Below are positions 12,634 through 33,774 of a DNA stretch of 33,774 nucleotides, piece after piece; position 1 is the first letter of the stretch; every line of letters starts with the position of its first letter. The stretch spans positions 1 through 33,774 of the forward strand of contig JBBDZW010000023.1 of the NCBI GenBank assembly GCA_040899895.1, given 5' to 3'. The notes below the pieces were generated by a model that had not been told where the DNA came from, searched no databases, and was given only the letters and a program-made list of their open reading frames with translations. Made by a program: the position numbers and the translations under genes. The stretch is from Minisyncoccota bacterium. GTDB lineage: Bacteria > Patescibacteriota > Minisyncoccia > 2-02-FULL-40-12 > GWA2-44-9.

Positions 12634-12664
12634 ACTAAAAATAAAAGGCCGATATTTAATCGGC
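12634..12664 (-). terminator. Candidate intrinsic terminator (minus strand) just downstream of the IR-bounded element
   Basis: On the minus strand GCCGAT-TAAAT-ATCGGC is followed by CTTTTATTTTT. Confidence 0.45.
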
Positions 12665-12667
12665 GCT

Positions 12668-12939
12668 AGGAGAGCAGGATTCGAACTACTCTTCACTTGA
12701 GCGGAGCCAATTTTGCTCATATTCAAGGCGTTGAGGAGCGATGCGTACTTAATGTACGTGAACGACGAACAACACAGAAGATGAGTAAAATTGGTTCGCC
12801 CTTCAGGGAAGTTCAAAAATGGCTGATTTCTTTGTTGCTCCTCCTCAATGTGGTTTAAACCACACTTTCGTCGTCACGCCGCGAAATCATCTCATTTTTG
12901 AACTTCTCAATTTGAAGATAGTTCGAATCCTGCTCTCCT
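12668..12939. repeat. 272-bp element bounded by a perfect 21-bp inverted repeat; candidate structured ncRNA or MITE-like element
   Basis: AGGAGAGCAGGATTCGAACTA (12668-12688) is the exact reverse complement of 12919-12939. Inside are two long hairpins: 12704-12720 with 12781-12797, and 12808-12821 with 12893-12906. An apical 14-nt palindrome, GTGGTTTAAACCAC, lies at 12850-12863. Confidence 0.5.
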
Positions 12940-13133
12940 TAATGCGGTTTTATGTCTTGAATGTCAAAAGAGGAAAAAGAACGGTTGCCTAAATTGATTA
13001 TTTCTTCGCAATTAACAACCATTAGCCCGTATACGACGGTTCCGTTTTTTAAATGTACATCAACAATGTGATAACCCATTCCTGATTCCGGCAATGCTAT
13101 CAGTTTGACTATCCATTTCTGGCTTAAACGCAT
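12939..13133 (-). CDS. Small hypothetical protein (64 aa)
   Basis: The ATG at 13133 is preceded by a GAGGGAAG RBS. The ORF reads MRLSQKWIVKLIALPESGMGYHIVDVHLKNG... I recognise no family. Confidence 0.45.
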   Translation of the reverse strand: MRLSQKWIVKLIALPESGMGYHIVDVHLKNGTVVYGLMVVNCEEIINLGNRSFSSFDIQDIKPH

Positions 13134-17101: not shown

Positions 17102-17731
17102 TTATATCCCAAGCTTTCTGGCTATAAAATCTACGAGCGATTGTTCATGAATTTTTTCCGGAACGAAATTTACCATTAAAGAGCGGATTTCTATCGGGTC
17201 TTCCTTCTCTAACGATACTTTGATGTGCGGTAAATACCAATTTTTAGACTCAAGGCTTATCTCTTTGAGTCCATTAGGATTATAGTCTATCCAGAAAGAT
17301 TTGAGCTCTTTATAATAATATGTTTTTTCGTTAATTGAAACCCCGGCCTGGTCAACCTTGACCTTCGAAATATCCGGCCTCTTGTTGGCATACAGAACCA
17401 GCACTAAGGACGATAGCATCAGGAATATGGCCAGAAGCATGTCTTGGTGATAGGAAAGAAGCGTCACCGCTCCAGCCACAAGGGCGATTACAATCATTGC
17501 CAAGTATTTTTTCTGGGGATTGTAGTAAAAAGATGGGGCTTCCCAGAGGAAGCTTGGAGGGGACTTGGCGAAATCCGGTTCCGGCGGCGGGGTCGGTTCG
17601 ATTATTTCCGCCCGAGGCGCTTCTGCTACTGTCGGAGGCGGGGTGACGACCTTTGGAGCGGTCTCCTCGGCCACCTTTGTAGGTTCCTCCGCCTTTTTTT
17701 TGTGCTTTTTTAGGTCTACTATGTAGGTCAT
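17102..17731 (-). CDS. Hypothetical membrane protein (Pro-rich N-terminus, two TM helices, C-terminal globular domain)
   Basis: The ORF has TM segments YLAMIVIALVAGAVTLLSY and LLAIFLMLSSLVLVLY. I recognise no family. Confidence 0.55.
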   Translation of the reverse strand: MTYIVDLKKHKKKAEEPTKVAEETAPKVVTPPPTVAEAPRAEIIEPTPPPEPDFAKSPPSFLWEAPSFYYNPQKKYLAMIVIALVAGAVTLLSYHQDMLLAIFLMLSSLVLVLYANKRPDISKVKVDQAGVSINEKTYYYKELKSFWIDYNPNGLKEISLESKNWYLPHIKVSLEKEDPIEIRSLMVNFVPEKIHEQSLVDFIARKLGI

Positions 17732-17762
17732 TGAAGTTGGACTTAAACTTGGCGGTGTTTTT

Positions 17763-17852
17763 TGGCGGAGAGGGTGAGATTCGAACTCACGGTAGGGTTA
17801 CCCCTACGCCGCATTTCAAGTGCGGTGCGTTAGACCACTCTGCCACCTCTCC
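17763..17852 (-). tRNA. tRNA-Ser (anticodon UGA), CCA encoded
   Basis: The reverse complement is GGAGAGGTGGCAGAGTGG...CCGCA-CTTGAAA-TGCGG, followed by the long variable arm CGTAGGGGTAACCCTACC, then GTGAGTTCGAATCTCAC-CCTCTCC-G-CCA. Confidence 0.9.
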
Positions 17853-17901
17853 AGCAGTCATTTTACCAGTTTTGGGGGCAAATTTCCAGATGAGAACTGA
17901 T

Positions 17902-17992
17902 TGGCGGTGAGGGTGGGATTCGAACCCACGGGCCCCTTGCGGAGCAAATCGCTTTCGAGGCGATCCCGTTATGACCACTTCGGTACCTCACC
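17902..17992 (-). tRNA. tRNA-Ser (anticodon CGA), CCA encoded
   Basis: The reverse complement is GGTGAGGTACCGAAGTGG...ATCGC-CTCGAAA-GCGAT, followed by a long variable arm, then GTGGGTTCGAATCCCAC-CCTCACC-G-CCA. Confidence 0.9.
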
Positions 17993-19196: not shown

Positions 19197-19386
19197 ATTT
19201 GTACTCTCATTGGTAATTAACTACCAAGCAAAATACACCAATAGTGTGTATTTTGCAAGAATACCAAATGAGTCCGGCAAAGTATGTTTATGTTGGCCTT
19301 CGACAAGCGCTTCGTCGTGAGCTCAGCACCGAACGGCTCAGGCCACTTCGCCTCGGCTCGCACTGAGCGAGCGAAGCGAGTCGAAG

Positions 19387-19406
19387 TGTTGCGGGGGTGG
19401 GATTCG
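19387..19406 (-). repeat. Inverted 20-nt copy of the tRNA-fMet 3' end (T-loop to discriminator)
   Basis: The reverse complement of 19387-19406 is CGAATCCCACCCCCGCAACA, identical to 20422-20441. Confidence 0.85.
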
Positions 19407-19407
19407 G

Positions 19408-20088
19408 CTACAACCTCGGTATTGTTAAAAAACGGTCGGTTAAGGCATTCAATTTATATAATAAATTTGTGCTCTTTTTGATTCGAAAATCCATAGTTCC
19501 ATAATAAGTATTGTGGTTTTCGTATTTCTTGGCTGGCCTTGTTTTAACATATCTAATATTCGTAAAATTCTTTGGTTTTGTTCTTAGATATCGTCTCCAG
19601 AAAGAAACTATTTCTTTCTCGCGGTTTTTGTGTATGGCATTGATATGTATAGAGAACTTAATGTCCATATTATTTATATTATAAAAACGGCGAAACCAGT
19701 CTATCATAAATCTAATAATCTTTTTGTTACTATTAGTAAATTGAACTGTTCCGTATGTCTTTGTGCCTTCCGCAAGATACAAGGCCAATCCTGTCATAAA
19801 GAATTCCCTTTCAGATAATTTATTAAGTTTCTTTGCCTCTTGAACTGCTATTTTTATCGCATTTATTCTTTTCATTTTCTGAAAATTAGCGCCCTTTAAT
19901 CGTCCCTGCAAAATCAAATGCCCCTTTTCGCTTAAGATCTTATTTAGTTGCTGCTCAGTTAACTTGATATCTCTGCACCAGAGGCTAATAGTACTTTGGG
20001 ATACTCCTATTATCTTGGATATGTCTTTGACGCTTTTCCCTGAACTTCTTAATTTCCGAGCCTTAATTTTTAAATCCGATTTAGCCAT
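19408..20088 (-). CDS. Free-standing HTH plus single-LAGLIDADG-motif homing-endonuclease-like protein
   Basis: The N-terminus has a resolvase-type HTH (GKSVKDISKIIGVSQSTISLWC). The central LAGLIDADG-like motif is FFMTGLALYLAEGTK. The ORF lies 79 nt from the intron-containing tRNA-fMet, on the opposite strand. Confidence 0.7.
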   Translation of the reverse strand: MAKSDLKIKARKLRSSGKSVKDISKIIGVSQSTISLWCRDIKLTEQQLNKILSEKGHLILQGRLKGANFQKMKRINAIKIAVQEAKKLNKLSEREFFMTGLALYLAEGTKTYGTVQFTNSNKKIIRFMIDWFRRFYNINNMDIKFSIHINAIHKNREKEIVSFWRRYLRTKPKNFTNIRYVKTRPAKKYENHNTYYGTMDFRIKKSTNLLYKLNALTDRFLTIPRL

Positions 20089-20127
20089 ATGTAGTTATAC
20101 TACATTATACGGCAATTGCTTTTTATT

Positions 20128-20157
20128 TTGAAGTTGCGATTTGTTTATAAGTATAAT
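20128..20157 (+). promoter_or_regulatory. Candidate promoter for tRNA-fMet
   Basis: TTGAAG (20128-20133), an 18-nt spacer, then TATAAT (20152-20157). The tRNA 5' end is at 20168. Confidence 0.45.
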
Positions 20158-20167
20158 ATTATTAAAT

Positions 20168-20439
20168 CGCGGGGTAGAGCAGCGGCAGCTCGTCAGGCTC
20201 ATAATCAAATTGTGACCTATCATAGTAATATGATATGGAAAACTCTCTAAACTGCTGGAAACCCTAATTCACATGAATGGGCAATCAGCAGCGAAATCCT
20301 GAGTTAACCGAAGGAGACGTTCAGAGACTATAATGGGAGCATCCGCCGGTCGGCGGATGATGGTATAGTCCGACACTGTCAGTAATGGCAGCCAACAGTC
20401 AGAACCTGGAGGTCGTGGGTTCGAATCCCACCCCCGCAA
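20168..20439 (+). tRNA. Initiator tRNA-fMet (anticodon CAU) interrupted by a group I intron; CCA not encoded
   Basis: Exon 1 is CGCGGGGTAGAGCAGCGGCAGCTCGTCAGGCTCAT. Exon 2 is AACCTGGAGGTCGTGGGTTCGAATCCCACCCCCGCAA. The joined exons closely resemble E. coli tRNA-fMet, including the C1xA72 mismatch. Confidence 0.9.
20203..20402 (+). ncRNA. Group I intron (IC3-like, ORF-less, 200 nt) in the tRNA-fMet anticodon loop
   Basis: The 5' exon ends in U (CAU|) and the intron ends in G (20402). A GTGAC internal guide candidate lies at 20212-20216. The motifs GGAAACCCTAA, TCAGAGACTA and ATAGTCCGAC parallel cyanobacterial tRNA introns. GACTA and TAGTC can form P7. Confidence 0.8.
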
Positions 20440-20516
20440 CATTCGGAACCCAAAATCCCCATAATGGGGACTTTGGTTTCATTGCCAATTCACCGGATTA
20501 GATTTAGATTTAGGAT

Positions 20517-20816
20517 ATGGAAAAACCGATACCGCTTTCTGAAGAGGAGATATTGGCCAGACTGAAAACTCTGCCTGGCTGGACCTATGCCGATAACAAA
20601 ATAAAAAAGGAATTCAAATTCCCCGATTTTATGAACGGTCTGAATTTTATAAATAAGATGGCCCCATATTTCGAGAAAATGGACCACCATCCGGATATGC
20701 ACATTTTTTACAACAAGATATTGTTCGAACTCCAGCGTTTTGATATCGGCGGAAAGGTGACCGACAAAGATTTCGAAGTCGCCGCCGAGATCGAGCACGA
20801 ATACAGCCAAAAATAG
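20517..20816 (+). CDS. phhB: Pterin-4-alpha-carbinolamine dehydratase
   Basis: The ~99-aa length fits. The motifs LPGW, F.F.DF..(A/G).F...(V/M)A...E...HHPD match the PCD/DCoH family. Confidence 0.85.
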   Translation: MEKPIPLSEEEILARLKTLPGWTYADNKIKKEFKFPDFMNGLNFINKMAPYFEKMDHHPDMHIFYNKILFELQRFDIGGKVTDKDFEVAAEIEHEYSQK

Positions 20817-20818
20817 CG

Positions 20819-20847
20819 TTGACTACGACCCGTTTTGAGTGTATGAT
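20819..20847 (+). promoter_or_regulatory. Candidate promoter for tRNA-Met
   Basis: TTGACT (20819-20824), a 17-nt spacer, then TATGAT (20842-20847). It lies 26 nt upstream of the tRNA. Confidence 0.4.
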
Positions 20848-20873
20848 TTTTAGGTTAATTATCTAAATATCAG

Positions 20874-20946
20874 GTCGGCGTAGCTCAGTGGTTAGAGCGG
20901 AGCCCTCATAAAGCTCAGGTCGCAGGTTCAATCCCTGCCGCCGACA
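20874..20946 (+). tRNA. tRNA with CAU anticodon (elongator Met, or Ile2 if lysidinylated); CCA not encoded
   Basis: It folds as GTCGGCG-TA-GCTC-AGTGGTTA-GAGC-G-GAGCC-CTCATAA-AGCTC-AGGTC-GCAGG-TTCAATC-CCTGC-CGCCGAC-A. Pair 1-72 is a standard Watson-Crick pair, so this is not an initiator. Confidence 0.85.
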
Positions 20947-20953
20947 CAATTAA

Positions 20954-22237
20954 ATGGAAAAAAATTTATTCGACTACAAATTCTATCAACTCGACTCCGG
21001 TCTGCGTTTGGTTTGCGTTCCAATGAAAGGAACAATGACGGCCACGGTAATGGTAATGGTCGGCACGGGTTCAAAATATGAGTCGAAAGACATAAACGGC
21101 ATATCCCATTTCCTTGAGCATATGATGTTCAAAGGTACGACCAAAAGGCCTGGCAAGCTCGATATTTCCAGGGAACTGGAATCTATCGGCGCCCAGTTCA
21201 ATGCGATGACAAGCAAGGAATGGACCGGATATTACGCCAAGGCCAGCGCCGCAAAAGTTGATGTCATAATGGATGTCGTATTCGACATATTCCTGAACTC
21301 CAAATTCAACGAAGAGGCGATACAAACAGAAAGGCATGTCATCGTTGAAGAGATAAATATGTACAATGACGATCCGCCCAGGTATGTGGGGGAGAGGTTC
21401 GAGAAGCTTCTTTACGGGGATCAGCCGGCTGGATGGGACATAGCCGGCGAAAAAGAGACCGTCCTCAATTTGAAGTGCGACGATTTTGTCCGCTACTTTG
21501 ATACTCATTATATTGCCGAGAACACGGTGGTGGCCGTTGCCGGCAACATCGACCCGGAAGTCATAAAAAGAAAAGTTGCCGGACATTTTGAGCAGATAAG
21601 GCACGGAAAGAGATTTGGGAAACCTGCGGTTATAGAGAAGCAGGATGGCCCGGCGCTTGATATAATCTACAAAGCTACCGACCAAACCCATTTTGTCTTG
21701 GGTTTCCGTTCTTTCGATATGTTCGACGAGCGGCGTTATGCCTTGTCGGTTTTAGGAAGCGTGCTTGGCGGAGGTATGAGCTCACGCCTATTCGACGAGG
21801 TGAGAGAGAAGCGAGGCCTGGCCTATTATGTTTCAGCCGGCCAGCAGCCCTATACGGACAGCGGTTATTTTGCCGTTAGTGCCGGAGTTAATAATGAACG
21901 CGCTCTCGAAGGAGTCCAAGTTGTGCTTGACGAGATAAGAAAGGTCAAAAAAGAGGGGATAACCCCCACAGAGTTGCAGCAGGCAAAAGATAAAGCGGTC
22001 GGCAGGACGGCTTTGGCTCTTGAGCACTCCGATTATATAGCCGAAACGGTTGCCGAAAGCTTGATATTCCACGGCAAAATTTTGACACCAGAAGAGGAGC
22101 TCGATAAAATTAAGAAAGTCACCCTTGCGGATGTAATGCAGGTGGCATCCGATATCTTTGACGTCTCAAGATTAAATCTCTCCCTGATCGGCCCGTTCAA
22201 AGAAATCGAGCCGTTTAAGAAGATTTTGAAATTATAA
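20954..22237 (+). CDS. M16 family (pitrilysin/insulinase-like) zinc peptidase
   Basis: The inverted zinc motif HxxEH is present (HFLEHMMFKGT). The ~427-aa two-domain layout fits the family. Confidence 0.9.
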   Translation: MEKNLFDYKFYQLDSGLRLVCVPMKGTMTATVMVMVGTGSKYESKDINGISHFLEHMMFKGTTKRPGKLDISRELESIGAQFNAMTSKEWTGYYAKASAAKVDVIMDVVFDIFLNSKFNEEAIQTERHVIVEEINMYNDDPPRYVGERFEKLLYGDQPAGWDIAGEKETVLNLKCDDFVRYFDTHYIAENTVVAVAGNIDPEVIKRKVAGHFEQIRHGKRFGKPAVIEKQDGPALDIIYKATDQTHFVLGFRSFDMFDERRYALSVLGSVLGGGMSSRLFDEVREKRGLAYYVSAGQQPYTDSGYFAVSAGVNNERALEGVQVVLDEIRKVKKEGITPTELQQAKDKAVGRTALALEHSDYIAETVAESLIFHGKILTPEEELDKIKKVTLADVMQVASDIFDVSRLNLSLIGPFKEIEPFKKILKL

Positions 22238-22238
22238 T

Positions 22239-23288
22239 ATGGCAGAACACGGACACATTCACATAGAAATAAACACCGGGACTATCATCAGGACTGTTTT
22301 GGTCATACTTTTCTTTGTGTTTCTTTACATTCTTAAAGATGTTTTTATTATTTTCCTGTTTGCTTTGATAATCGCATCGGCAATCTCTCCTTTTGCAAAT
22401 TGGCTTGAAAGTAAGGGTTTTCCGCGCTTGTTTGGCGTGCTGTTGTTGTTTCTGATCGTTCTGGGTTTGGTGGTCTTTCTCCTGTCTCTTATAGTTCCTT
22501 TCATTTCCCAGGAGGTTAGCCAACTTTTGGTTGCTCTTCCCGAAACTTTGGCCAAAGTTTCATCTTCTTTGGAACAAGCCCAGGCGGGCGCGCCCAGTTA
22601 TTTGAATTTTGTGAGCGAGATACAGAACATCTTGGAAGGCTTCTCCTCATATCTCCAGCAATCGGCCCAATCGGGTGTGGGTTTGGTTGTCAGCATTTTC
22701 GGCGGAGTGATGTCGTTTGTCGCCATATTAATAATTTCTTTCTACCTTTCGGTGACCAAGAATGGTATCCAGAATTTCCTTGGCTCTATAATTCCTGAAA
22801 AATACGAATCCTATGCCGTTGATTTGTGGAAGCGATCAGAGATTAAGGTCGGTCGTTGGCTGCAGGGCCAGCTTCTACTTGGGCTTATAGTGGGCCTTGT
22901 CGTATATGTCGGTCTTTCTCTTATGGGAGTAAAGTACGCTCTGGTTCTTGGCCTGCTGGCTGCCATATTGGAGATAGTTCCGATTGTTGGGCCTGTCCTC
23001 GCTGCCATTCCTGCCGTATTCTTGGCATTTCTCCAAGCGCCATCTTTTGGTCTTTGGGTGCTATTATTTTATGTTGTGGTCCAACAGCTTGAGAACCATT
23101 TGCTGGTACCGCTGGTTCTGGGGAAAATAGTCGGCCTTAACCCCGTCGTTGTTATTATCGCTCTTCTTGTCGGCCTGCAGCTCGCCGGAATTCCAGGCAT
23201 GATCCTCTCCGTCCCATTGGCAACGGTCATTGTTGAGATGTTGGATGATTTTGCCCGGCAAAAAGAATCTCGCCGTCTCTCCGCTTAA
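22239..23288 (+). CDS. AI-2E family transporter (UPF0118/PerM-like permease)
   Basis: About eight TM helices are present. The C-terminal conserved region EIVPIVGPVLAAIPAV...QQLENHLLVPLVLGK fits the family. Confidence 0.85.
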   Translation: MAEHGHIHIEINTGTIIRTVLVILFFVFLYILKDVFIIFLFALIIASAISPFANWLESKGFPRLFGVLLLFLIVLGLVVFLLSLIVPFISQEVSQLLVALPETLAKVSSSLEQAQAGAPSYLNFVSEIQNILEGFSSYLQQSAQSGVGLVVSIFGGVMSFVAILIISFYLSVTKNGIQNFLGSIIPEKYESYAVDLWKRSEIKVGRWLQGQLLLGLIVGLVVYVGLSLMGVKYALVLGLLAAILEIVPIVGPVLAAIPAVFLAFLQAPSFGLWVLLFYVVVQQLENHLLVPLVLGKIVGLNPVVVIIALLVGLQLAGIPGMILSVPLATVIVEMLDDFARQKESRRLSA

Positions 23289-23291
23289 ATC

Positions 23292-23963
23292 ATGCTCTAT
23301 ATCGTCGCTACTCCTATCGGCAATTTGGAAGATATTTCACTGCGGGCAATAAGCGTTTTAAGCAATGCGGATTTAATTTTGGCCGAAGATACGAGGGTAA
23401 CAAAAGTTCTGTTAGATAGATACAACATTAAAAAAGATGTATTAAGCTATCACGAACATAGCGGGTTGAAAAAGTTAGACAAAATAATCGAGCTGTTAAA
23501 GAATAACAAAAATCTTGCGCTGGTTACCGATGCAGGCACTCCCGGAATAAGCGATCCGGGAAGTTATTTAATCAGTGAAGTGCTCAAGTATCTGCCTGAT
23601 CTTAAAATAGTTCCTGTTCCAGGCGCAAATGCCGCGATAGCAGCTTTATCTATTAGCGGTTTTTATTCCGACGAATTTGTTTTTTTGGGTTTTCCTCCGC
23701 ACAAGAAAGGCCGCCAGACATTTTTTAAAAAAATAGGCAAAACACCCGAAACAATTGTTTTTTATGAATCAAAGCATAGAATACTGAAAGCACTTCAAGA
23801 ACTTAAAGAAATATCAGAAACAGGAGACAGACCGATTGTAGTTGCTCGCGAACTGACTAAGCAGTTTGAAACGATATATAGAGGAACAGCCGAAGAGATT
23901 TTGGAAAAATTAAATAAAACACAAGTTTTAGGAGAGTTTGTGGTAATAATAAGGGCTAAATAA
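23292..23963 (+). CDS. rsmI: 16S rRNA (cytidine1402-2'-O)-methyltransferase
   Basis: The N-terminal LYIVATPIGNLEDISLRA...AEDTR and DAGTPGISDPG motifs belong to the tetrapyrrole-methylase-fold RsmI family. Confidence 0.9.
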   Translation: MLYIVATPIGNLEDISLRAISVLSNADLILAEDTRVTKVLLDRYNIKKDVLSYHEHSGLKKLDKIIELLKNNKNLALVTDAGTPGISDPGSYLISEVLKYLPDLKIVPVPGANAAIAALSISGFYSDEFVFLGFPPHKKGRQTFFKKIGKTPETIVFYESKHRILKALQELKEISETGDRPIVVARELTKQFETIYRGTAEEILEKLNKTQVLGEFVVIIRAK

Positions 23964-30915: not shown

Positions 30916-31570
30916 TTATTGAGCGCCGCAGGGCGCGAAATACTGAGGCCAGGAGGCTGAATGTATTGAGTCCCGAGAGGGACAATATCTCAAGCCAATT
31001 TTTGCGAATTCCTAGGGCGAAGGATATTAAACTCCAAGTATAACCACTAGTGAACCTTCCCAATTTTATATACTTAACCAGCTTATTTTTAAGAGAGTTT
31101 GATTCTGGCTCAGGATGAACGCTGGCGGCACCGATAAGTCATGCAAGTCGAACGGTCCCTCCCCAGTTTCGCAAGAAACTGGGGAGGGATAGTGGCGAAC
31201 GAGTTAGTAACACATTGGTATCTACCTTAAAGTCGGACACAACTAATCGAAAGATTAGCTAATTTCCGATAGTCTCGTAAGAGTAAAGGAGCAATCCGCT
31301 TTGAGAGGAGCCTATGTCCTATCAGCTTGTTGGCGGGGTAACGGCCCACCAAGGCTATGACGGGTAGGGGGTGTGAGAGCACGACCCTCAACGACGAAAC
31401 TGAGACACGGTTCGTACACCTACGGGTGGCAGCAGACGAGAATATTCGACAATGCACGAAAGTGTGATCGAGGGATGCCGCGTGCAGGAAGAAGTCCTTC
31501 GGGATGTAAACTGCTTTTGTCAGGGAAAAATTTTGATTGTACCTGAAGAATAAGGGGTTGCTAACCTCGT

Positions 31571-32492
31571 GAATTTTCTATCGCCTCCTCGGGCGATAGC
31601 GCGAGCCCTCATAGGAATATGAGGTGTAAAATACTTGGCTTATATGCTGGAAAACCTAGTTAATAGTTTAGTACCGCTTGCGGTGACAATCTAAACTAAA
31701 TTATTGTTGATTTAGTCAATAATAATGCTGGAAAATCAGCAGGGAAGCTGGTATAATGAGAGTAATGAATCTGGATAAAAAGACACAAGATATCATAGTA
31801 GGTTTACTTCTTGGTGACGGAAGTTTTGAGAAGAAATCAGATACAATTGGAATTCGATTGCAGATAAAACAGCAGTCGAAAGCAAAGGAATATGTTGAGT
31901 GGCTCTATGGTCATCTCAAGGATTACTGTCTTTCCGAGATAAAACTTAGGAAAGACTACAATCAATATTATTTTAGCACCAGATATTTGAGAGAATTTCA
32001 GAACCTGTATAAGATCTTTTATAGAAATGGAAAGAAAGTTATTCCATCGAATATAAAAGAACTATTGACTTCACCATTAAGTTTGGCCATATGGTATATG
32101 GATGATGGATCTTTAGATTTTAGACCTAAGGACCACTATGCTTTTTATTTAGCGACAAATTGTTTTACGGTTACAGATTCTCAGCGGCTTCAAAAAGCTT
32201 TGCAAGAGAATTTCGGAATATCTTCCGCCGTATATAATAATTTGTGTAGAGGAAAAAGATATTCAAGAATATGCATTGGGTCGAAAGGCAGAGATCAATT
32301 CTGCCGCTCGGTCCGACCACATATTTTAAAATGTTTTTCCTACAAGTTGCCTCAATATACTTAGCCCCCCAGAGACTTGGTTCTAAACGAACCGGATAGC
32401 AATTTTTTAGTTGCTATAAGACGCCGAGCACCCGACCTCATTATGAGTGGGTGGTGATATAGTCCAAAAACGATTGATTCAATTGTTATATG
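31571..32492 (+). mobile_element. Group I intron 1 in 16S rRNA (between E. coli-equivalent GT and GCCAGCAG, ~position 514)
   Basis: A 922-nt insertion splits ...CTAACCTCGT | GCCAGCAGCAGCGG. The 5' exon ends in U and the intron ends in G. The motifs CAGAGACTT and GATATAGTCC (the P7 halves) flank the end of the embedded LAGLIDADG ORF. Confidence 0.8.
31756..32364 (+). CDS. LAGLIDADG homing endonuclease (double-motif), intron-encoded
   Basis: The two motifs are IIVGLLLGDGSF and LAIWYMDDGSL. The ORF lies entirely within 16S intron 1. Confidence 0.9.
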   Translation: MRVMNLDKKTQDIIVGLLLGDGSFEKKSDTIGIRLQIKQQSKAKEYVEWLYGHLKDYCLSEIKLRKDYNQYYFSTRYLREFQNLYKIFYRNGKKVIPSNIKELLTSPLSLAIWYMDDGSLDFRPKDHYAFYLATNCFTVTDSQRLQKALQENFGISSAVYNNLCRGKRYSRICIGSKGRDQFCRSVRPHILKCFSYKLPQYT

Positions 32493-32520
32493 GCCAGCAG
32501 CAGCGGTAATACGAGGACCC

Positions 32521-32551
<31 letters not shown>

Positions 32552-32764
32552 AGTGAGTAGCCGGTTTTATTAGTCTGATGTTAAATCCCATGGCTTAACT
32601 GTGGGGCCGCATTGGAAACGGTAAGACTAGAGCGGCTGAGAGGCAAGCGGAACGTGCGGTGTAGGGGTGAAATCCATTGATATTGCACGGAACACCAAAA
32701 GCGAAGGCAGCTTGCTAGCGGTATGCTGACGGTCAATCACGAAAGCGTGGGGATCAAAAAGGAT

Positions 32765-33654
32765 TGGCAAGGGTACCAAACTAATGGTAAAATTAGATTT
32801 GGTTAGCTAGTCCCATCTTATAGCGATATAAGAACGTAAACTTGGCTATTTCGGTGAAAATCCACAGACACTAATGTGGAAAATACCGAGGGAAGTTGCG
32901 GAGACTTATATTTGTACTTGGTGAACATCTTACATAGAGATAAAAAGGTTAATTTTCGATTTTCAGCTCGTCAAAGATCTATTCTTATCGGCTCCTTGCT
33001 TGGTGATGCTAACATCAACAAGAGAGGAAATTGTCATAGAGTGTTGTTCAAGCACTCCGAGAAACAAAAGTCGCTCCTGATATGGAAGCGACAAGAATTT
33101 GATTCTATCACGGGAATGGATATCAACTATTTTCAGCAGGTGGTTAAGGGAAACATCTATGGCTTTTGCCAGTTTGTCACCCTTACTCATCCTGAATTTT
33201 CTGATATCTATAAAAAGTTTTACACCGCCAGAAGAGGTAAAATAATTCCCGTGGATATTACCAGACTTGTCAAAGACCCTTTGTCTTTAGCGGTTTGGAT
33301 CATGGATGACGGAGCAAAGGATAATGTGGGGATGACTATTCAGACCCATAGTTTTAGCAAGACCGAAGTCGAAAGATTAATTAAGACATTAAAAATAAAT
33401 TTTAAACTGCTCTGTACGATGCGTAAAAATAAAGGGAAATTTATTATATATTTTCCTAAGACAGAGATACCAAGATTATGGAAGCTCGTGAGAGCATTCA
33501 TATTGCCGGAGTACAAATATAAGTTTCCGTTAACCCCGTAGAGACTACACGCCGAGGCTGTCTCAGACAGCATGATATAGTCCGACCTGCATAGTAATAT
33601 GCAGAGCATACCAGAAATGCGTGTGCCATCCATTTAAAAGGATAGTAACAATTG
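32765..33654 (+). mobile_element. Group I intron 2 in 16S rRNA (within GGAT|TAGATACCC, ~E. coli position 788)
   Basis: An 890-nt insertion. The 5' exon ends in U (32764) and the intron ends in G (33654). The motifs TAGAGACTACACG and GATATAGTCCGACC match the tRNA-fMet intron core. Confidence 0.8.
32876..33541 (+). CDS. LAGLIDADG homing endonuclease (double-motif), intron-encoded
   Basis: The two motifs are ILIGSLLGDANI and LAVWIMDDGAK. The start is GTG at 32876, as there is no upstream in-frame ATG. The stop codon TAG is part of the intron-core TAGAGACTA. Confidence 0.85.
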   Translation: MENTEGSCGDLYLYLVNILHRDKKVNFRFSARQRSILIGSLLGDANINKRGNCHRVLFKHSEKQKSLLIWKRQEFDSITGMDINYFQQVVKGNIYGFCQFVTLTHPEFSDIYKKFYTARRGKIIPVDITRLVKDPLSLAVWIMDDGAKDNVGMTIQTHSFSKTEVERLIKTLKINFKLLCTMRKNKGKFIIYFPKTEIPRLWKLVRAFILPEYKYKFPLTP

Positions 33655-33774
33655 TAGATACCCTTGTAGTCCACGCCCTAAACTATGCAGATTAGCTATT
33701 GGGAGCATCGACCCTTCCAGTGGCGTAGCTAACGCGTTAAATCTGCCGCCTGGGAAGTACGAGCGCAAGCTTAA

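Follow-up and report, generated by a model that had tools for sequence, protein, structure and literature searches.

T4 SegB, a free-standing endonuclease that resides in a tRNA cluster, recognises the T-psi-C stem-loop motif (PMC2330249). Its cuts fall inside tRNA genes, at a motif resembling the T-loop, and through recombination it drives a rearrangement of the tRNA locus in the form of segmental amplification (PMC13096335). Group I introns in the tRNA-fMet genes of cyanobacteria, with the endonuclease I-Ssp6803I, are cited in PMC3984707. LAGLIDADG endonucleases occur in rRNA insertions of bacteria of the candidate phyla radiation (CPR) (PMC11270868), and introns in CPR tRNAs have received a passing mention (PMC8172020). 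Group I introns of tRNA-fMet, free-standing endonucleases beside intron-containing genes, endonucleases of tRNA clusters, and inversion between inverted repeats are already known. The subject here is a locus that brings these themes together, in a 33,774-nt stretch of DNA (the window) from a Minisyncoccota bacterium (assembly GCA_040899895.1, contig JBBDZW010000023.1, positions 1 to 33,774). In this locus an open reading frame (ORF) for an endonuclease-like protein and a split tRNA-fMet gene are bracketed by a 20-nt inverted duplication of the tRNA 3' end. The two copies, or arms, are likely to be the joints of a flip-flop cassette (19387-20441) composed of the endonuclease-like gene and the body of the split tRNA-fMet gene, with divergent promoter-like sites in the spacer between them. 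In literature searches, neither this endonuclease family nor its association with tRNA-fMet/tRNA-Met loci was found described, nor was an invertible cassette whose repeats are the end of an essential tRNA gene.

How does the cassette compare with described systems? Like SegB of T4 and T6, a GIY-YIG enzyme, it has a free-standing endonuclease-like gene among tRNA genes, and its joints are the segment from the T-loop to the tRNA 3' end. It differs from SegB in that the predicted nuclease is LAGLIDADG-like with an N-terminal helix-turn-helix (HTH) and the hosts are mainly cellular (Patescibacteria); moreover, the rearrangement is not tandem amplification but an inversion that regenerates an essential tRNA gene. 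Inversion through inverted repeats is familiar from plastid genome isomers, from bacterial inversions mediated by rrn, IS or tRNA sequences, and from the Hin/Gin invertase switches. The cassette shares with these systems a segment between inverted repeats and two orientations reached by repeat exchange. Unlike theirs, its repeats are only 20 nt long and lie within one essential tRNA gene, and each flip would swap the copy that completes this gene.

The 20-mer CGAATCCCACCCCCGCAACA is present in exactly two copies in the window, 20422-20441 on the plus strand and 19387-19406 on the minus strand, with zero mismatches between them, and the pair is the top-ranked inverted repeat of the region. When up to three mismatches were allowed, no third copy was found in the window and no match in 100 dinucleotide-preserving shuffles, so that the chance expectation is zero. 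The initial annotation, made from the sequence of the window, had described an exact inverted duplication of the tRNA-fMet 3' end at these positions, and this is borne out. Its account of the right arm, running from the T-loop through the discriminator and 2 nt beyond, agrees with the exon layout of the tRNA gene, and the left arm does start 1 nt beyond the stop codon of the ORF (TAG, 19410-19408 on the minus strand). On the 5' side of the left arm a weaker resemblance to the tRNA continues, where GAGGTTGTAG-C corresponds to GGAGGTCGTGGGTT of the tRNA. The junction of ORF stop and tRNA fragment recurs in relatives with 58-85% ORF identity, and in every lineage it falls at T-loop positions 53-56.

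The orientation of the cassette was compared among related contigs of Ca. Yanofskybacteria, whose ORFs are 50-100% identical to that of the window; these and the other contigs compared are referred to by L numbers. The neighbours of the cassette in the window likewise match Ca. Yanofskybacteria. Between the window and L088, positions 17116-17992 and 20481-23888 are colinear, while 19387-20442 aligns in the opposite sense. In L173 and L172 the cassettes are 83.5% identical and align in the same sense, whereas the flanks align in the opposite sense (82% identity over 2.2 kb and 72% over 1.3 kb), with the 25-nt arm shared between the alignments of cassette and flank. The window shows the same inversion pattern against L161 and L163. 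The segment is therefore found in both orientations between conserved flanks with its junctions inside the repeats, as in flip-flop inversion. Inversion had been one of several origins offered by the initial annotation, together with the proposal that relatives be searched for the opposite orientation; the search succeeded, and relatives carry the 1.05-kb segment inverted between colinear flanks with the breakpoints in the repeat.

The junctions can be followed at the level of single motifs. The terminator of the left flank (aaaactaaaccg.cttttggcgg) lies past the tRNA in L172 and L088 and past the fragment in L173. In both L172 and L173 it is joined to TGTTGCGGGGGTGGGATTCGA, which leads into the tRNA T-stem in L172 and into the ORF stop in L173; the two sequences part directly after GGGATTCGA. 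One and the same trailer is placed after the tRNA in one orientation and after the fragment in the other. In the window itself, the hairpin at 19228-19256 has its homologue at the 3' end of a minus-strand tRNA-fMet gene in L085 and L087, and the left arm therefore marks a former minus-strand tRNA-fMet end, now separated from the hairpin by a 90-nt insert (19297-19386).

The window-like orientation, A, is found in five lineages (the window, L173, L180, L001/L081, and L174-179) and the opposite orientation, B, in ten (L161-168, L191, L169-171, L172/L088, L082, L083, L182/183, L085, L086, and L087), with the L174 group and L169 assigned from one flank only. Orientation B is probably ancestral because the wider family and the empty site resemble it. 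The nearest relatives of the window ORF (84-85% identity; the L161 group and L191) are in orientation B. When closer relatives were sought through the neighbouring M16 peptidase gene, L184 (100% identical) ended before the cassette and L191 was again in orientation B. On a neighbour-joining tree of the 226-aa endonuclease-like protein the two orientations are interleaved, with five changes by Fitch parsimony; among 200 bootstrap trees, four changes were needed in 110, five in 86, and three in 4. This interleaving implies three to five flips, and the flips separate lineages at a synonymous divergence (dS) of at least 0.5.

The arm beside the ORF is well conserved in some lineages. The fragment past the ORF stop is identical at 20 of 20 positions in the window, L169, L173 and L082, whose ORFs differ by dS of 0.55-1.2 or are saturated. 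Moreover, its T-stem variant follows the tRNA-fMet of its own genome, being CCCAC in the window group, CCTGC in L182 and L084, and CCCGG in the L185 remnant. Identity at saturated dS and this co-variation mean that the arm next to the ORF is kept or refreshed and is not simply decaying. A free fragment would have no reason to track compensatory changes in a T-stem, so the arms exchange sequence, by flips or by gene conversion. Decay is seen in other lineages: L088 and L172 read CCGAATTCTATCCCCCCCCGCAACA, L083 has a 19-nt insertion, the L174-179 group has extra Cs, and strong divergence is found in L180 and L191. A locus whose fragment has been lost or has decayed would be fixed in its orientation.

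What might the cassette do when its arms recombine? Both arms contain the last 20 nt of tRNA-fMet, therefore either orientation rebuilds a complete tRNA gene. Exchange between the arms would invert the cassette, the arm that comes to lie next to the tRNA body would complete the gene, and the other would adjoin the endonuclease stop codon; the initiator tRNA would thus survive each flip. The exchange itself would be homologous recombination or double-strand-break repair between the arms, and flipping is probably slow, on an evolutionary time scale, and not programmed. A possible trigger is cutting of tRNA-gene DNA by the endonuclease at or near the T-loop, in the manner of T4 SegB, and the second arm may have come from such a repair event, or from a second copy of tRNA-fMet, at the 3' border of the endonuclease gene. 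The T-arm DNA (GTGGGTTCGAATCCCAC) is nearly palindromic, which is the type of site that a homodimeric, single-motif LAGLIDADG enzyme could recognise. With SegB as precedent, endonuclease breaks at the arms are plausible as the driver of inversion, though unproven; rare recombination between the arms is the simplest reading.

Several observations weigh against inversion through the arms. Recombination of the RecA type has a lower length limit close to their 20 bp. Arms are absent in L001/L081, the L161 group and L085-87, which represent both orientations, so secondary loss has to be assumed. No lineage has mixed orientations, as all eight contigs of the L161 group, all six of L174-179 and all three of L169-171 agree; there is no sign of fast ongoing switching, and short-read assemblies would hide a minority form. 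The number of flips depends on a neighbour-joining tree of one short protein and on the two single-flank assignments. The endonuclease is a prediction, and Pfam sees no LAGLIDADG domain in the ORF. For the second arm, the data do not discriminate between a staggered break, an inverted duplication or fold-back, microhomology of the T-loop with the tRNA downstream, and a second gene since lost. Furthermore, scars in L169, L174, L001/L081 and L185 suggest duplications besides simple flips. L169 and L174 have the final codons of an ORF joined to an arm on the minus strand (TGTTGCGGGGG.TGGGATTCGG-CTACAAC); in these two and in L001/L081, arm copies just beyond the tRNA terminator are broken by small hairpin insertions; and L185 has TTGTAG-GCGAATCCCGGCCCC upstream of tRNA-Met, with the ORF gone and the tRNA-fMet intron-less. 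The history of the locus therefore includes duplications and deletions around the arms, and not clean flips alone.

Could the cassette instead be a mobile unit with terminal inverted repeats, which homing, or inverted duplication and then loss of one copy, re-inserts or copies in one orientation or the other? Gutted second cassettes with arm pairs of their own do lie beside the active one in opposite orientation (L174 2449-2603, L169 1992-2160, and the L185 remnant), and the locus shows presence/absence polymorphism, with L189 and L190 lacking both ORF and intron. Mobility is nevertheless improbable: the divergence of cassette and flanks is congruent in the L173/L172 pair, both flanks are retained with the junctions inside the arms and no target-site duplication, no transposase is present, and one stretch of 20-nt homology is not enough for a linear copy to integrate. 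The scars and gutted cassettes keep alive one form of this explanation, inverted copying with subsequent loss of one copy. Still less probable is that the left arm is the last, roleless remnant of a second tRNA-fMet gene decaying in place, its inverted layout being incidental. This was the scenario that, according to the initial annotation, would undo a link with the ORF if relatives displayed it. The decayed fragments described above and the weak tRNA similarity 5' of the arm would fit such a remnant, but the relatives speak otherwise: the fragment always adjoins the ORF stop, it is 20/20 identical at saturated dS, it co-varies with the resident tRNA in T-stem changes that matter only to a folded tRNA, and the inversion breakpoints map to it.

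A programmed fast switch (phase variation), worked by a dedicated recombinase or by the HTH-LAGLIDADG protein acting on the arms, would also produce a segment that lies between inverted repeats and occurs in either orientation, and the N-terminal HTH of 21 of the 31 family members gives a score with the resolvase-type HTH_7. Here the comparison with Hin, Gin and Fim is unfavourable. Neither the cassette, whose sole ORF is the HTH-LAGLIDADG-like one, nor the five neighbouring ORFs tested contain a serine or tyrosine recombinase domain or any other recombinase domain; both promoter-like sites are inside the cassette, so that a flip changes no obvious expression; and every lineage with several contigs is monomorphic across samples, with flips at the dS given above and rare on population time scales. 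There is thus no evidence for a programmed switch, and this explanation is very unlikely. The remaining proposals, duplication of an attachment site by an integrative element at the tRNA 3' end and a chance or assembly artefact, have next to nothing in their favour, even though tRNA 3' ends are classic integration sites and L190 has an 18-nt direct duplication of the tRNA-Met 3' end around a 152-nt insert. The cassette repeat is inverted, unlike that of an integrative element, no integrase is present, no match arises by chance, and the arrangement recurs in independent assemblies; orientation and recurrence of the repeat refute both proposals.

Beyond rare recombination between the arms, a more ambitious account is conceivable, although the odds are well against it. 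The HTH-LAGLIDADG-like protein would be an active endonuclease that cuts tRNA-gene DNA at the near-palindromic T-arm with a SegB-like specificity evolved independently on the scaffold of a LAGLIDADG homodimer; its breaks would have made the inverted arm at the 3' border of its own gene and would drive the flips, scars and duplications, and the cassette, with its intron-bearing initiator tRNA gene, would be a selfish unit resembling a cleave-and-rescue element.

Table 1. Features of the tRNA-fMet cassette and its immediate surroundings in the window.
Feature	Position	Strand	Description
Hairpin, 11-bp arms	19228..19256		Homologue directly past the 3' end of tRNA-fMet(-) in orientation-B L085 and L087
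GC-rich (~65%) insert, 90 nt	19297..19386		Terminal CTTCGAC/GTCGAAG; between left arm and ancestral flank
Left arm	19387..19406	-	Repeats the final 20 nt of the tRNA-fMet gene; 1 nt past ORF stop
Free-standing ORF, 226 aa, predicted HTH and single LAGLIDADG-like domain	19408..20088	-	ORF call; weak profile match to I-DmoI in the PDB
AT-rich spacer, 78 nt	20089..20167		Back-to-back promoter-like sites for ORF and tRNA
tRNA-fMet 5' exon	20168..20202	+	CGCGGGG acceptor strand; three G-C pairs in anticodon stem; CAU at 20200-20202
Group I intron without ORF	20203..20402	+	Inserted after the anticodon; ends in G; RF00028
tRNA-fMet 3' exon	20403..20439	+	Positions 37-73; aligns with intron-less tRNA-fMet of relatives, e.g., L189 3607-3679
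Right arm	20422..20441	+	T-loop C56 through discriminator A73 (20439) and 2 nt; 3' end of the functional tRNA-fMet gene
Terminator-like hairpin past tRNA	20456..20470	+	Counterpart flank lies past the fragment in orientation-B relatives
Elongator tRNA-Met	20874..20947	+	In most loci of the ORF family directly after, and overlapped by, the ORF

The tRNA-fMet gene (20168-20439) is split by a 200-nt group I intron directly after the CAU anticodon. ARAGORN makes no tRNA-fMet call at the right arm because the intron interrupts the gene. The intron matches Rfam RF00028 at 20193-20392 over the full length of the model (94.4 bits, E 2.6e-23; gathering score 50), while the exon and intron borders were placed by reading the sequence. 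The Rfam alignment includes a P1 pairing to the 5' exon with a U.G pair at U36. With its match to the conserved catalytic core (P3-P9) and this pairing, the insert is a group I intron, and splicing is predicted. Homologous introns (RF00028, 57-100 bits) were found in 11 of the 18 contigs scanned. The gene is the only initiator tRNA gene seen in the window, and neither the stretch 20089-20167 before the ORF nor the sequence past the right arm showed, on reading, the 5' half of a disrupted tRNA. I-Ssp6803I is a PD-(D/E)XK enzyme. As far as the cited account of the cyanobacterial introns goes, these too are group I introns in the anticodon loop of the initiator tRNA, but their endonuclease lies inside the intron, whereas that of the cassette lies outside, is divergently transcribed, and is LAGLIDADG-like. 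L169 (2347-2770, plus strand) has a canonical LAGLIDADG ORF (MTDVAYLAGLIDGEGH...) within the intron of its minus-strand tRNA-fMet gene and antisense to the intron, where it coexists with the free-standing HTH-LAGLIDADG-like gene. The longer tRNA-fMet genes of L001, L094 and L010 may hold similar inserts.

Is the ORF product an endonuclease? The ORF has a GC content of ~30%, against ~44% around it. The initial annotation had assigned it an HTH and a LAGLIDADG domain. The HTH was confirmed and is the only part that Pfam recognises in the ORF; the LAGLIDADG assignment comes from a weak profile match, and Pfam LAGLIDADG models match none of 31 family members. A profile of the 31 homologues, when compared with the PDB, aligns with the second LAGLIDADG domain of I-DmoI (E=0.002-0.007), the LYLAEGTKT of the ORF family falling on LYVAEGDKT. 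In the motif GLALYLAEGTK, E107, G108 and K110 are invariant across the 31 sequences, and the aligned glutamate of I-DmoI is taken here, by alignment offset, to be the catalytic E117. The AF2 model of the protein (pLDDT 89) has alternating helices and strands at 93-222, and a Foldseek comparison of the whole protein with the PDB returns many I-DmoI chains at weak scores (E ~0.3-1, probability 0.5-0.75). Ratios of nonsynonymous to synonymous divergence (dN/dS) between the ORFs of relatives are 0.08-0.13, which indicates strong purifying selection on the protein. As judged from sequence and model, the ORF product is an HTH joined to a single LAGLIDADG-like domain, resembles a homing endonuclease, and is a predicted nuclease. 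It shares phylum and nuclease superfamily with the LAGLIDADG proteins of CPR rRNA insertions. These have canonical double motifs, in contrast to the ORF family, which is free-standing, combines a single motif with an HTH, resides in tRNA loci, and is not recognised by the Pfam LAGLIDADG models.

The ORF family has more than 500 relatives in genome collections and more than 500 in metagenome collections, with 7,729 clusters at 50% identity (E <=0.001), and its hosts are Patescibacteria. Across 160 loci the ORF nearly always directly precedes a tRNA gene on its own strand; this is usually elongator tRNA-Met, with tRNA-Asp next in line. The downstream tRNA-Met, apparently intact, often contains the ORF stop, with overlaps of 9, 20-22 or 36-38 nt (L005/L093, L003, L091, L002, and many others), as with the TAA in the anticodon loop CTCATAA. 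Processing of an ORF-tRNA co-transcript by RNase P may remove the stop codon and so limit endonuclease expression. Viral contigs (IMG/VR L192-L198) contain only distant homologues, with 25-30% identity, which lie inside large tRNA arrays, each immediately 5' of a tRNA on the same strand (for example tRNA-Val or tRNA-Lys); the tie to tRNA genes therefore reaches beyond Patescibacteria.

Of the 139 non-redundant loci with sufficient flanking sequence, 92 have a tRNA-fMet gene ~80-100 nt upstream of the ORF start. Where this gene is on the same strand as the ORF it mostly has no intron (39 loci, against 8 with one), and where it is on the opposite strand an intron is more frequent (33 loci with, 12 without). 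The cassette arrangement was looked for in the wider family (35-47% identity) and not found; a complete tRNA gene comes after the ORF there, for elongator tRNA-Met, tRNA-Gln or tRNA-Lys, and wider-family loci that differ in tRNA-fMet orientation have no flanking inverted repeat.

Presence of the ORF varies between otherwise matching sites. L189 and L190 have no ORF, and consist of an intron-less tRNA-fMet on the minus strand, a 75-nt spacer and tRNA-Met on the plus strand; L161 has a site that matches these two but contains both ORF and intron, and L185 keeps only a 3' remnant of the ORF. The difference between L189/L190 and L161 is the presence/absence polymorphism expected of a free-standing homing endonuclease gene. 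In the clade with at least 50% identity, every ORF-positive locus (~15 lineages) has the intron and both ORF-less relatives are without it, a co-occurrence that fits collaborative homing of a free-standing endonuclease and an ORF-less intron (PMC3984707). In contrast to this likeness, 51 of the 92 neighbouring tRNA-fMet genes in the whole family are intron-less, and the known cases of collaborative homing are phage-borne and involve other nuclease families. Since about half of the wider family adjoins intron-less tRNA-fMet, the link between intron and ORF may be specific to the clade or reflect shared ancestry.

Of the other parts of the cassette, the spacer contains two promoter-like sites recognised by consensus match only, TTGAAG-18-TATAAT on the plus strand (20128-20157) and TTCAAA-17-TATAAT on the minus strand (20132-20104), each with 10 of 12 positions. 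With these divergent sites the cassette looks like a self-contained divergent transcription unit. The 90-nt GC-rich insert beside the left arm is absent at this position in relatives, has no Rfam match, and is not repeated in the window or in the fetched loci. The fragment and its GC-rich neighbour were considered as an RNA element and rejected, with no Rfam match at E <=10 and a fold no better than that of shuffles (z = -1.3); no T-arm forms in the fragment because the 5' strand of the T-stem is missing.

GC-rich inserts of 90-170 nt, rich in GAGCGAAGCGAG-like motifs, are found at tRNA 3' ends in the clade (window 19297-19386; L190 ~205-355; L185 ~112-260), and the insert of L190, between its direct repeats, looks like an integration footprint. 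The interval between the ORF, with its fragment, and tRNA-Met has varied cargo. In the window and in L172 it is occupied by a gene for pterin-4a-carbinolamine dehydratase, in L182 by NifU, and in L191 by two unknown ORFs; L161 and L185 have nothing there. Such variety suggests a hot spot for gene insertion or loss.

Two further regions of the window were examined. The initial annotation had taken a T-loop-like inverted repeat as a second case of a tRNA 3' end used as an inverted terminal repeat. Its arms are at 12668-12688 and 12919-12939, so that 12939 is the end, and not the start, of the second arm. The region (12664-12943), in a divergent intergenic interval, has a perfect 21-bp inverted repeat with a T-loop-like core (GGATTCGAAC) enclosing ~230 nt, and folds into a Y shape (minimum free energy -120 kcal/mol, z = -10.4), with a hairpin and T-run read by eye just downstream on the minus strand. 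No Rfam match, tRNA call or copy in any fetched locus was found for it. The parallel finds no support in this form, as neither a tRNA gene nor a relative links this strongly structured repeat to the mechanism of the cassette; the repeat may belong to a gene for a structured RNA or be a miniature inverted-repeat element. The 16S rRNA gene (31095-33774) has an insertion of ~930 nt after model position ~510, its Rfam match ending at model position 546, and two canonical LAGLIDADG ORFs lie in 16S insertions, at 31756-32364 (IIVGLLLGDGSF) and 32876-33541 (LIGSLLGDANI). Such insertions with LAGLIDADG ORFs are typical of CPR rRNA genes (PMC11270868).

What does the cassette mean for the genomes that carry it? 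Automatic annotation of such genomes may wrongly report tRNA-fMet as missing. A single-copy essential gene can sit unbroken inside an invertible segment when the repeat is the gene's own end. The ~7,700 clusters of endonuclease-like genes extend the SegB picture to cellular genomes and to another nuclease fold, and the cassette is a compact natural system for asking whether homing-endonuclease breaks drive inversions. Should the less probable selfish-unit account be true, the unit would damage tRNA-fMet alleles already present or take their place, and would provide a functional copy whichever way it lay; this logic would extend to thousands of uncharacterised relatives in the tRNA loci of Patescibacteria and some phages.

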